From: Prorocentrum cordatum
Lineage: Eukaryota
NCBI GenBank assembly: GCA_963575745.1
Contig: CAUYUJ010000282.1
Location: 62,001-115,929, forward strand
DNA length: 53,929 bases
Direction of reading: 5' to 3'
Shown in pieces: positions 38,761 through 47,637 of the stretch. The position numbers and the translations under genes were made by a program. The notes beneath the pieces are model-generated. The model had not been told where the DNA came from and did not search any database. It worked only from the letters and a program-made list of their open reading frames with translations. Every line of letters starts with the position of its first letter. Positions within the stretch are counted from its first letter, which is position 1.

Positions 38761-39168
38761 GGATACAGACCCTGTTCCGACCGGGCCCGGTTCCGACCCG
38801 CCCGGTTCCGACCCGGCCCGGTTCCGATCCGCCCGGTTCCGACCAGGCCCGGTTCCGACCAGGCCCGGTTCCGACCTGGCCCGGTTCCGATCCGCCCGGT
38901 TCCGATCCGCCCGGTTCTGACCCGGCCCGGTTCCGCCGCCCGAGGGGGCGCGCAGTCCCGGCGCGTGAGGCTTTCGCGCGGCGGCAGAGGGCCGGCCGGA
39001 ACAGGGCCGGCGGAACAGGGCCTGGTCGGAACAGGGCCTGGTCGGAACAGGGCTGGCAGCAACAGGGCTGGGTCGGAACAGGGCCGGCCGGAACAGGGCC
39101 GGTCGGAACAGCGAGGGGCCGGAACAGGGCCGGTCGGAACAGGGCCGTCGGAAGAGGGCTTGTCGGAT
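38761..39168. repeat. Left foldback end: ~15-bp GGTTCCGACC array, spacer, inverted GGTCGGAACAGGG array
   Basis: Forward units 38770-38936, inverted units 38988-39168. Confidence 0.9.
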
Positions 39169-39170
39169 TG

Positions 39171-39220
<50 letters not shown>

Positions 39221-39223
39221 CGT

Positions 39224-39279
<56 letters not shown>

Positions 39280-39280
39280 C

Positions 39281-39312
<32 letters not shown>

Positions 39313-39748
39313 CAGCAGCAGGAGGAGGAGGAAAGGGACTGGAGAGCCCGAGTTTTCCTTTCGGTCGGCACCGACGCGGTGACCCGCAGGGAAGAGAGCG
39401 ATGGTGTACAAGCAGAGGCGCGGACACGAGTGGAAGAGCATCGCCAGGGCCGTGAACGACCACGCACGTCTGCGAGCGCCGCCTAGAGAGCGCGTCGGCA
39501 TGCAAGTAGGAGAAGAGTAGGCTCGACAGCGCCATTGCCCCGTGCTCCTCGTCCTCCTCCTCCTTCTCCCCCCCCTTACTCCTTCTCCTCCCCCTCCTCG
39601 TCCTCGTGCCCGTCCTCCTCCTCCTCCTCCTCCTCGTCGTCCTCCTCGTCCTCTTCCTCCTCCTCCTCCTCCTCCTCCTCCTTGTCCTCCAAAGCGAAAG
39701 CGGCGAGGACGCCTGCCTGGAGCGCGGGCGCGGGGCGGCGGTCGGCCA

Positions 39749-41880
39749 TCAGTCGGCGAGGTACGCGATGGCCTTGAGGAGCTTGAGCCCCTCCTTGTCC
39801 TCGTCGAAGTCCTCGAGCAGGGTCATGATGCGCTCCCGCTTGGCCTTCATGTTCTGCGTCTCGCGCTGCTGGCTGCCCACGGCAATCTTGGCGAGGTCCA
39901 AGTCAGTGAGGCGCTGGGCCGCGTGGAGCCCGCCCAGGAAAGCCTCCATGGAAGGGTGCGCAGAGCCATGCGGCAAGCACTTGTTGTACTTCGAGTGCCA
40001 GCGCTCGGCGGCGTTGCTGGTGGTATGGCGGGGCCCCCAGACGCGGTCGTTGACGTTCCACAAGTCGCGCGCGAAGAGAGGCCTCTTGCGGAGATCGCGG
40101 GCGCCCTTGTCGGTGATGCGAAGCTTGATGGGCTCGCCAATCCTGTATAAGATGGCAGAGGAGGAGGAGGACGACGACGACAAGGGGGACAACGACGACG
40201 AGGACGACGAGGACGACGACGACGACGACGACAAGACGACGAGGACGACGAGGACGACGAGGACAAAGACGACGAGGACGAGGACGAGGACGGGGACGAG
40301 GACGACGACGACGACGACGAGGACGACGACGACGACGAGGACGACGAGGACGACAAAGACGACAAGGACGAGGAGAAAGACGACGACGACGACGACGAGG
40401 ACGACGAGGACGACGACGACGACGACGACGAGGACGACGAGGACGACGAGAAAGACGACGACCGCGACCACGACGACGACCGCGACGATGACGACGAGGA
40501 CGACGAGGGCGACGAGGGCGAGGACGAGGACGAGGACGACGACGGAGAGGGCGACGGACGACGAGGAGGAGGACGACGAGGACGAGGACGACGACGACGA
40601 CGAGGACGACGAGGACGACAAGGACGACGAGGACGAGGAGAAAGACGACGACGAGGACGACGACGACGACGACGAGGACGACGAGGACGACGAGGACGAC
40701 GAGAAAGACGACGACCACGACCACGACGACGACCACGACGATGACGACGAGGACGACGAGGACGACGAGGGCGAGGACGAGGACGAGGACGACGACGAAG
40801 AGGACGACGACGAGGAGGAGGACGACGAGGACGAGCACGACGACGACGACGGGGACGACGAGGACGACGACGACGACGACCACGACGACGACGACGACGG
40901 CGAGGACGACGACGACGACGACGACCACGACGACGACGACAACGACGACGATGACGACAAGGAATGCTTGCGGGACGAAGATGAGAGGTAGGATGTCCAA
41001 GTGTGGACGTAGTACTTCATGAGCTTCTCCTCGTCGGGCTGGAAGAGCAGGAACAGCTCCTCGAACACGGGCGCGACGGATGCCACGGGCACGTGCGGCA
41101 TCGCGCAGAGGCACTTGACGCGCACGCGGAAAGAGGCGTCCGTGGCGTACCGCGGCGAGAAGCCGAGGTCGTGAACTTTGCGGTGGATGCACTGGCAATA
41201 GTGGAACAAGCGTCCGCCGAGGTTGTGGTCTCCGAAGTGCTCTCCTAGAGCGGAGACGGAGCCGTGCTCGAAATCCAGTAGGACCGTTGGCGCGTCCTCC
41301 TCGGAGGCCCCGGAGATGCGGCCCAGAGGGGCGTGGGCGCGCAGGGGCACCCCAGAAGGCCGGCAGAAGAGCCCTGGAGAGGGCGGGTGCGGCATGGGGC
41401 CCCTGCGAACCAGATCCGCGGGGACCGCATCTCGGAGGCCCCGGCGCCTTGGCGTGGATGTCCGTGATGCCGGCGACGGCGCGCCAGAGTCGCTGGTAGG
41501 TTTGCTTGCGCTTGTCCGGCAGGAGCGCAAAGAGAAGCGGCAGGGCGAAGCCTTTCTTGTAGGCCAAGATGGTGTAAAGCTGCGTGAACAACCTGGGGCT
41601 CTGCTTAAATGTCCCGTCGCACACCCGCGCAGAAGCAGCCTTGAGCTCCTCGACGTTCTTCGCCGTCCCGAAGATCATGAACCTCTCGCCCCCGTCAGCC
41701 GAGCCGGAATCGTGCACCAGGAAATTGTCATCCCCGCAGAGGAGGAACGCCGGGTCGATGACCATAGAGCCGAGGGTCTTGTAGCAGGCGACGTCCAGAG
41801 CACCTGGGGGGGCGGAACACTCCGGTCGTCCCCTCGCCGTCGTCCTCGTCGTCGTCGTCGTCGTCGTCGCCCTCGTCGTC

Positions 41881-41921
<41 letters not shown>

Positions 41922-42148
41922 GGTCGTCGTCGTCGTCGTCGTCGTTCTCGTCGTCGTCGTCGTCCTCGTCGTCCTCGTCGTCGTCGTCGTCGTCGTCGTC
42001 TTTCTCGTCGTCGTCGTCATCGTCGTCCTCGTCGTCGTCGTCGTCGTCGTTCCAGTGGGCCGTCGTCGTCGTCGTCGTCGTCGTCGCCCGTCGTCGTCGC
42101 GCGGCGTCGTCGTCGTCGTCGTCGTCGCCGCCGGCGCCGCCGGCGCCG

Positions 42149-42179
<31 letters not shown>

Positions 42180-45450: not shown

Positions 45451-45482
<32 letters not shown>

Positions 45483-45793
45483 GAACCCTAACCCTAACCC
45501 TAACCCTAAACCCTAAACCCTAACCCGAAGCCTAACCCTGACCCTAAACCCTAACCCTAACCCGAACCCTAAGCCCTAAACCCTAACCCTAACCCGAAAC
45601 CCTAAACCCTAAACCCGAACCCTAAACCCTAAAACCTACCCCTAAACCCTAAACCCTACACCCTACACCCTAACCCTAAACCTAACCCTAAACCTGAACC
45701 CTAACCCTTAAACCCCAAACCCTAACCCTAAACCTAACCCTAAACCTGAACCCAAACCCGAACCCTAACCCTAAACCCTAAACCCTAAACCCA

Positions 45794-45832
<39 letters not shown>

Positions 45833-45875
45833 CCCTAAACCTAAACCCTAAACCCTAACCCTAACCCTGACCCTC

Positions 45876-45907
<32 letters not shown>

Positions 45908-46117
45908 CCCAACCCAAATACCCAAACCCTAACCCTAACCCTAACCCGAAACCGTGAACCCTGAACCCTAACCCTAACCCGAAACCGTAACCCTAACCCG
46001 AACCCTAACCCTAAACCGTAACCCTAACCCTAACCCTAACCCTACACCCTAACCCTAACCCTAACCCTAAAACCTTAACCCTAACCCCAACCCTAAACCC
46101 TAAACCCTAAAACCTAC

Positions 46118-46154
<37 letters not shown>

Positions 46155-46665
46155 CCCTAACCCTAAACCCTAAACCCTAAACCCTAAACCCTAACCCGGA
46201 GCCTAACCCTGACCCTAAACCCTGACCCCAACCCTAACCCTAAGCCTAAGCCTAAGCCCTAAACCCTAACCCTAACCCGAAACCCGAAACCCGAAACCCT
46301 AAACCCTAAACCCTTACCTAAACCATAACCCTAGCCCTAAACCCTAAACCCTAACCCTATACCTAAACCTAACCCTAAACCCTAAACCCTAACCCTAACC
46401 CTGACCCTAACCTAACCCTAAACCCTAAACCCTGACCCTAACCTAACCCAAAAACCCCAAACCCTAACCCTAACCCGAAACCGTGAACCCTGAACCCTAA
46501 CCCTAACCCTAGTCCTAACCCGAAACCCGAAACCGTAACCCTAACCCGAACCCTAACCCTAAACCCTAACCCTAACCGTAACCCTAACCCTAAACCCTAA
46601 CCCGAACCCTAACCCTAAACCCTTAACCCTAACCCCAACCCGAAACCCTAAACCCTAAACCCTAC

Positions 46666-46702
<37 letters not shown>

Positions 46703-47242
46703 CCCTAACCCTAACCCTAAACCCTAAACCCTAACCCGAAGCCTGACCCTGACCCTAAACCCTAACCCTAATCCTAACCCTAACCCTAACCCTAAGCCCC
46801 AAACCCTAACCCTAACCCTAAACCGTAACCCAAACCCTAACCCTAACCCTAAACCCTAAACCCTAACCTAAACCATAACCCCAGCCCTAAACCCTAAACC
46901 CTAACCCTAAACCTAACCCTAAACCTGAAACCCAAACCCGAACCCTAACCCTAAACCTTAAACCGTAACCCAAACCCTAACCCTAACCCTAAACCCTAAC
47001 CCCAACCCTAACCCTAACCCTAACCCTAAACCCTAAACCCTGACCCTAACCCGAACCCTAAACCCTAAACCCTAACCCAAACCCCAACTCTAATCCTAAA
47101 CCCTCACCCTGACCCTAACCCGAAACCCTGAACCCTAAACCGTAACCCTAACTTTAACCCTAACCCTAAACCCCAACCCTACCCCTAACCCCAAACCCTA
47201 AGCCTTAACCCTAACCCGAACCCTAAACCCTAACCCTAACCC
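43103..47242. repeat. ~4.1-kb interstitial telomere-like array of mixed CCCTAA/CCCTAAA with variants
   Basis: Directly visible; variants CCCGAA, CCCTGA, CCGTAA, CCTAA; non-telomeric sequence on both sides. Confidence 0.97.
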
Positions 47243-47259
47243 CCCGCCGCCGGGTTTCG

Positions 47260-47637
47260 CCCCGCCCGGTTCCGACCCGCCCGGTTCCGACCAAGCCCGG
47301 TTCCGACCAGGCCCGGTTCCGCCCAGGCCCGTTTCCGACCAGGCCCGGTTCCGACCAGGCCCGGTTCCGACCCGCCCGGTTCCGACCAGGCCCTGTTCCG
47401 CCGGCCCTGTTCCGACCCGCCAAGAGAGCGTTCTCGCATGGGACATCGCGACGGCGGAACAGGGCCGGCCGGAACAGGGCCGGCGGAACAGGGCCGGCGG
47501 AACAGGGCCGGTCGGAACAGGGCCGGTCGGAACAGGGCCGGTCGGAACAGGGCCGGCGGGAACAGGGCCTGGTCGGAACAGGGCCGGCCGGAACAGGGCC
47601 GGCGGAACAGGGCCTGGTCGGAACAGGGCCTGTTCCC
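47260..47637. repeat. Right foldback end: GGTTCCGACC array, short spacer, inverted CGGAACAGGG array
   Basis: Forward units 47262-47420, inverted units 47454-47628. Confidence 0.9.

Follow-up and report, generated by a model that had tools for sequence, protein, structure and literature searches.

A decayed telomere-like array between a FLYWCH-MULE transposase gene and a foldback in Prorocentrum cordatum

A stretch of 53,929 nucleotides from the dinoflagellate Prorocentrum cordatum (assembly GCA_963575745.1, contig CAUYUJ010000282.1, positions 62,001 to 115,929 of the forward strand), here called the window and used for the numbering of all positions, contains a locus for which the label of a Mutator element appears reasonable from its sequence. 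The locus is composed of a left foldback, a FLYWCH-MULE transposase gene which lies on the minus strand in five pieces, a 4.1-kb decayed telomere-like repeat at 43103-47242 and a right foldback, in that order. The same order had been proposed in an earlier interpretation of the letters (the sequence-only reading), and all of the elements that it listed are present in their places. The most favoured interpretation, with a probability of about 0.4, is that the locus is a Phantom/Foldback-type Mutator element and that the array may be an old local scar which formed at a foldback terminus and was later internalised. There is no sign of the array travelling with the transposon, which makes a local scar more likely than cargo, and the link between array and element is a single-locus association. 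The locus documents a Phantom/Foldback-type Mutator element outside animals, together with an unusual array neighbour at this one site.

Structure and polarity of the telomere-like array

The array spans 43103-47242 with its G-rich strand on the minus strand, and is scored by Tandem Repeats Finder as a repeat of period 6 with 652.5 copies, 81% matches and 8% indels; a 19-nt period (6+6+7) given by the same program is an alternative reading of the same array. Parsed unit by unit it resolves into 660 units, 361 of which (55%) are canonical (214 CCCTAA and 147 CCCTAAA), while 299 are variants that mostly carry single changes, such as CCCGAA, CCCTGA and CCGTAA. Measured against the nearest canonical unit, its 4140 nt require 386 edits, which amounts to 9.3% per base. 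Canonical runs of at least two units are confined to the array, with none outside it and none on the opposite strand, and the array, the sole one of telomeric type in the window, has about five times the length of the next longest short-period array there. The array is evenly decayed, without a purity gradient or a higher-order repeat: the canonical fraction ranges from 0.35 to 0.68 per 300-nt bin and shows no trend inward from either end, and pure runs reach at most 11 units. The homogeneous repeats by which a true telomere would be recognised, purest distally and situated at a sequence end, are therefore not found here. Provided that the assembly is correct the array is internal, with gap-free sequence for 25 kb to its left and 6.7 kb to its right; the sole gap in the window is a run of 100 N at 17596-17695, and none is located at either array junction. 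An apparent 1.1-kb internal duplication (43103-44190 versus 46168-47242, 88% over 1106 nt) was rejected by an offset control, in which the array compared with itself gave gapped identities of 73-90% at eleven offsets, including 0.90 at an offset of 1860.

On the plus strand the C-rich repeat is followed by the right foldback with no spacer, so that the array stops exactly at the foldback terminus. Read on the opposite strand, the foldback side is closed by a run of G, which passes directly into the G-rich repeat and makes a good telomerase primer. A C-rich repeat followed by the foldback on the plus strand is the arrangement expected if telomerase had extended the 3' end of a DNA that starts at 47243, whereas telomerase addition on the gene side would have left the opposite polarity. 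In the telomere sense the array thus belongs to the right foldback and its flank, and not to the gene. The same polarity logic has been applied to Tel-1 and to the Helitrons of Paramecium (PMC13085455). The polarity fits a foldback terminus at which a break or transposase cut was first healed and afterwards rejoined, and it also fits a former chromosome end or the misjoined end of a contig. Telomeric repeats are absent at the other foldback boundaries (38700-38765, from 39172 on and from 47633 on). Each foldback has a simple repeat against one of its termini: for the left foldback this is a (GTA)47 microsatellite (39171-39312) at its inner end, and for the right foldback it is the array, at its arm-1 end.

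The foldbacks

Both foldbacks are about 400 bp in length and are made of 15-16-bp subrepeats. The left foldback (38766-39171) has its first arm at 38770-38942, with about ten units of CCCGGTTCCGAC plus 3-4 nt, then a loop of about 45 nt and a second arm at 38988-39167. The right foldback (47247-47632) has its first arm at 47264-47417, a loop of about 37 nt and its second arm at 47455-47630. A 12-nt subrepeat allowed at most one mismatch is matched 30 times against an expectation of 0.54, and 29 of these matches lie in two clusters at 38770-39144 and 47265-47628; no further hairpin of this kind occurs elsewhere in the window. Each foldback is a complete two-armed hairpin in which about ten units are followed by the loop of 37-45 nt and by about 8-11 units in reverse complement. 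Folded as single-stranded DNA, the left one reaches -173.6 kcal/mol (z -11.7) and the right one -193.8 kcal/mol (z -15.1).

The arms are imperfectly complementary. The first arm carries a G in 9 of 10 units on the left and 8 of 10 on the right, and the second arm carries an A, where C would pair, in 8 of 8 and 11 of 11 units, respectively. This shared arm polarity indicates that the two foldbacks are direct copies of a two-armed unit reminiscent of MITEs (miniature transposable elements with inverted repeats), and not the mirror-image termini of one element. The whole foldbacks also agree at 337 of 406 positions when aligned in the same orientation, versus 309 of 406 against the reverse complement, while their loops give no orientation signal (30 of 55 either way). 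The sequence-only reading had spoken of foldback ends; both foldbacks do exist, but each is a hairpin complete in itself and the pair is direct.

The transposase gene

The gene is read on the minus strand from five coding pieces, E1 to E5, which total 1863 nt without an interrupting stop. E1 (42634-42972) encodes the N-terminus and the first half of the FLYWCH finger, starting from an ATG at 42972 with an earlier in-frame ATG at 43017. E2 (42183-42563) encodes the second half of the finger (C...H..H) and a linker. The MULE domain is divided between E3 (41424-41843), which has its first half and the DGTF motif, and E4 (40985-41302), which has its second half and the DFE motif. E5 (39752-40156) makes up the C-terminal part and contains the stop codon as well as the catalytic motif NxxE. 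Pfam recovers only half-domain matches, to FLYWCH (3-36 of 62, E 0.23) and to MULE (3-53 of 99, E 0.0063), and both remain below the gathering score because the gene is split, with the FLYWCH finger divided between E1 and E2.

The family assignment is carried by homologues. A phmmer search with E3 against 1.84 billion representatives returned 3094 homologues at E <= 1e-3, including 276 at <= 1e-10 and a best identity of 44%. Among nine top homologues that were examined at full length with Pfam, seven contain both FLYWCH and MULE, one only MULE and one only FLYWCH. The five pieces tile these homologues of approximately 500 residues (510 aa) end to end. By tblastn, residues 65-168, 167-271, 278-382 and 397-507 of the protein P0001, together with residues 22-58 of P0023, are placed in order and at one locus only, and the last of the P0001 segments falls at 40090-39758, within E5, with 49.6% identity. 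When E1 and E2 are aligned jointly with homologues the whole finger is covered and its C, C, H and H are kept. In an alignment with eight homologues 37 of 41 invariant columns are conserved, including DGTF, DFE and NxxE (D, D, E). The combination of FLYWCH and MULE characterises the Phantom subclass of Mutator (PMC3169594). The claim of a FLYWCH-MULE gene of Mutator type has therefore held up, and with the subrepeat-containing foldbacks the locus matches the Phantom/Foldback/Tm1 kind (PMC3169594). As a lead only, the nearest named cluster to E5 in the ESM Atlas is MULE at 0.88, and the nearest overall are eukaryotic proteins. Named organisms among 18 homologues looked up are limited to Prorocentrum cordatum itself, with a partial protein, and a spider; one further homologue is a eukaryote transcript and the rest come from contigs of 1-3 kb.

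Relative to its homologues the gene contains four interruptions. Two of these change the frame (about 42733-42518 and about 41475-41302) and have possible GC...AG boundaries that were read by eye. The other two are in-frame microsatellites, namely (TCG)n (41834-42179, about 350 nt), which separates E2 from E3, and (GACGAC/GAGGACGAC)n (40164-40963, about 800 nt), which separates E4 from E5 and is without a stop; these could be either introns or coding low-complexity expansions. The gene is possibly still intact in spite of the four interruptions. The frames 39749-41674 and 39903-42575 stay open through the microsatellites of about 800 and 350 nt.

Upstream of the coding pieces the gene strand reads, in order, the G-rich array, (AGG)11, a pyrimidine-rich stretch, CTGCAG|G and the two ATG codons at 43017 and 42972. 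The trinucleotide run, (TCC)11 on the plus strand at 43072-43104, links the 5' region of the gene to the array. The G-rich strand of the array is the sense strand of the gene, as the sequence-only reading had observed. The same reading had drawn attention to the CTGCAG motif (43041-43036, minus strand), whose acceptor-like AG would place the start of a putative exon at 43035. It is present between array and start codon, upstream of both in-frame ATG codons at distances of 18 nt (from 43017) and 63 nt (from 42972), as a motif that is too short to exceed chance. The proposal built on it, which places the array within a 5' intron or ahead of a trans-splice site, finds no counterpart in the data examined. 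Three RNA sequencing runs gave no transcript contigs on 42180-43102 (nothing from X15 and X16, and from X19 two 31-nt pieces in a G/C run); in a word screen RNA runs contained 0.07-0.12 of the words. A spliced-leader word had no matches at up to 3 mismatches.

Origin of the array

It is proposed that a DNA end was created at the outer terminus of the right foldback, either through a cut by the transposase or through breakage of the hairpin, and that telomerase extended the G-rich 3' end of this DNA. At a later time the capped end would have been linked to the DNA in which the gene is found today, after which the telomere-type tract would have decayed. The anatomy of the locus, the decay and polarity of the array, the polarity of the foldbacks and the family of the gene enter this scheme as observations; the break, the telomerase addition and the rejoining are steps that we infer from them.

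Several points weigh against this interpretation. The word telomeric itself relies on a likeness to the TTAGGG and TTTAGGG types, and the units are a mixture of 6-mers and 7-mers. Dinoflagellate telomeres are described as consisting of TTTAGGG and being very long (PMC11453091), and interstitial telomeric signals are reported to be rare in Karenia (PMC6395649). A purity gradient, from which a former end could be recognised, has not survived. In vertebrates the interstitial telomeric inserts described from repaired breaks are short (PMC8537989); a tract of 4 kb would need a real former chromosome end or a later expansion. Since short-period repeats make up 17% of the window, a large simple-repeat array does not need a special origin. 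With regard to the gene, four invariant residues are changed and all of them lie in E4 (A294S, C310R, A348P and F349H), and intactness would require both frame changes to be introns. Finally, a single locus was examined, at which a scar and a cargo predict the same picture.

The array may instead have grown in place from a short telomere-like seed, in which case its proximity to the gene and the foldback would be due to chance, and this is rather unlikely. Such growth would suit a window in which many short-period arrays of 0.2-0.8 kb are found, including (CTA)206, (CCT)203, (AGG)152, an 11-mer and a 10-mer, and in which microsatellites also interrupt the gene and adjoin the left foldback. The array nevertheless exceeds the longest of the other short-period arrays about fivefold, is alone in being of telomeric type and ends exactly at the foldback terminus. 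No internal duplication stands out over the identities found across offsets, and the array thus gives no hint of having grown recently through duplicated blocks.

A further explanation, that of the sequence-only reading, is unlikely: foldback, gene, array and foldback would form a mobile composite in which the array is inherited as an internal component, and by which interstitial telomeric sequence would be dispersed. The array lies wholly inside the outermost arms, abuts the right foldback without spacer and is 55-100 nt away from the start codon, and the catalytic residues of the gene are kept. Each foldback has termini of both kinds, and therefore the outer arm 1 (from 38770) and the outer arm 2 (to 47630) form a correctly oriented pair, so that the composite could in principle be movable despite the direct orientation of the foldbacks. 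In Drosophila, foldback elements that occur in pairs are able to move large segments lying between them, which lends this explanation some plausibility. The locus resembles Drosophila Foldback, FB-NOF and the FB composites in its hairpins with repetitive arms, in the associated coding segment and in a pair that could move its interior. It differs in that mobility of the block is putative here and in that Drosophila is not known to have telomerase-type repeats.

No positive sign of a mobile composite was observed, and the claim that the element carries the array finds no support. No target-site duplication is present, as no word of at least 6 nt is shared within 20-25 nt on either side of the outer pair or of either foldback alone, unlike in Tm1-type elements, which mostly have duplications of 8-10 bp (45 of 53; PMC3169594). 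The flanks outside the foldbacks have only microsatellite matches in common and hence give no indication of one satellite split by the block. Nor was a second copy found in the collections that were searched. Word-index protein searches with E3 (residues 245-384 of ORF 39903-42575) and with E5 (longer proteins) returned no matches. A metagenome scan for two adjacent foldback units gave nine loci in unrelated GC-rich sequence, none with close units on both strands and none with telomere-type runs, and a scan of viral contigs with the homologue alignment gave 122 pattern matches of which none was confirmed. In addition, the array is decayed by about 9% while the gene pieces are free of stops, which would imply either that the array is older than this copy of the gene or that selection acts on the gene only, and its polarity fits an addition to the foldback side.

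A related copy of the gene does exist somewhere, as is implied by the DNA sequencing run X1. Against 42180-43102 this run yields two contigs of 247 and 411 nt with about 96% identity over 42322-42959 and a loose end at 42959. These contigs are diverged and short, and stop before the side of the array. They differ from the window by 17 base changes, which are all transitions (A>G 3, C>T 5, G>A 4, T>C 5), and by one 1-nt insertion and a difference of about 45 nt that starts at 42959. In the word screen of sequencing runs, the best run contained 0.32 of the words, and 13 runs from four organisms all contained exactly 0.21, probably owing to microsatellite words.

A broader proposal is that a Phantom/Foldback composite either carries a kb-scale array heritably or gains such arrays through telomerase acting on excised ends in a manner similar to Tel-1, and would thereby seed interstitial tracts while the G-rich strand is transcribed into the transposase pre-mRNA. 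This appears distinctly improbable. If the array does move with the element, or if foldback ends are regular substrates of telomerase, the locus would stand as a tangible origin of interstitial telomeric DNA for a lineage of protists whose telomeres are very long, and would also connect to the old observations on Tel-1 and TBE elements in ciliates.

Least probable, and very doubtful, is an assembly misjoin in which a chromosome-end contig (array, foldback and the sequence from 47633 on) was wrongly attached to the contig with the gene: with respect to the DNA on its right the array has the polarity of a left-end telomere, the gap of 100 N reveals a scaffolded assembly, the left junction lies in a microsatellite and the best DNA run supplies only diverged, short contigs across 42180-43102, but there is no N at the junctions, the array has degenerated evenly and lacks a pure distal part, unlike an end maintained by telomerase, and clean alignments over 100-140 residues are obtained with the coding pieces next to it, which argues against raw-read noise as the cause of the variants.

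Relation to known elements

One of the closest described systems is Tm1 of root-knot nematodes, which encodes a FLYWCH-MULE transposase of 496 aa between Foldback-like inverted repeats of 13-15-bp tandem units, has MITE-like derivatives and is mostly flanked by target-site duplications of 8-10 bp (PMC3169594). Three of four testable features of the Tm1-like kind are found here, the FLYWCH finger, the MULE D, D, E residues and inverted ends built of subrepeats, while the fourth, the 8-10-bp duplication, is lacking at this locus. The likeness extends to the N-terminal position of FLYWCH in a protein of about 500 aa, to arms of 13-16-bp subrepeats that vary in number and to the occurrence of MITE-like forms consisting of arms only. 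Unlike Tm1, which has one arm per side, the gene is situated between two directly oriented hairpins that are each complete. The present host is a protist of high GC content and not an animal, and a kb-scale telomere-like array is not among the features described for Tm1 in the cited account.

Transposon-like DNA with telomeric repeats at its termini is known from ciliates, where Tel-1 of Tetrahymena and TBE1 of Oxytricha are examples and where telomerase addition to a linear intermediate has been proposed for Tel-1 (PMC13085455). Such an addition predicts the polarity seen at the right foldback. TBE1 and Tel-1 have short repeats at both ends, whereas the tract described here is 4.1 kb long, decayed, and restricted to one terminus of the right foldback with none at the outer ends of the block. 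The telomere-inserting Helitrons of Paramecium belong to another superfamily, and their insertion leaves repeats on both sides, in contrast to the one side observed here (PMC13085455). The suggestion that the locus is unlike described MULEs is fair with respect to the kb-scale array, but transposons with telomeric repeats as such are already published, namely TBE1, Tel-1 and the Paramecium Helitrons (PMC13085455). Outside transposons, interstitial telomeric sequences that result from break repair or rearrangement are comparable in being internal, decayed and polarised towards one flank (PMC8537989, PMC6410037); inserts of the repair type are usually tens to hundreds of bp in length, in contrast to the 4.1 kb found here.

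Sequence surrounding the locus

The window is rich in repeats and poor in genes, with tandem repeats of period up to 20 accounting for the 17% given above. When 53 other long ORFs of the window were compared with Pfam, no family rose above threshold and only two weak sub-threshold matches were seen, and scans of the window for tRNA genes and Rfam families gave no match. An 11-nt tandem array at 17125-17589 directly precedes the N gap. Just to the left of the block a satellite at 36477-38092 consists of about 20 copies of 76-78-nt units with 76-77% matches, and is followed by a decayed 10-11-nt repeat at 38185-38722. Another satellite, at 6528-7705, has about six copies of units of approximately 166-184 nt with 84-87% matches, and these units begin with long alternating CG runs. 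Trinucleotide arrays occur in adjacent pairs of opposite sense, such as (TCC)n/(AGG)n and (GAG)n/(CCT)n, at 31679-32620, 50041-50936 and 39545-40963, and such pairs score as inverted repeats of 70-90 nt. Other long short-period arrays are (CTA)206 at 27274-27892 and (GTTGGT)94 at 11346-11917, and a 10-nt array of the GGTTTCCAAT type at 52022-52579 shows higher periods of 70 and 120 nt.

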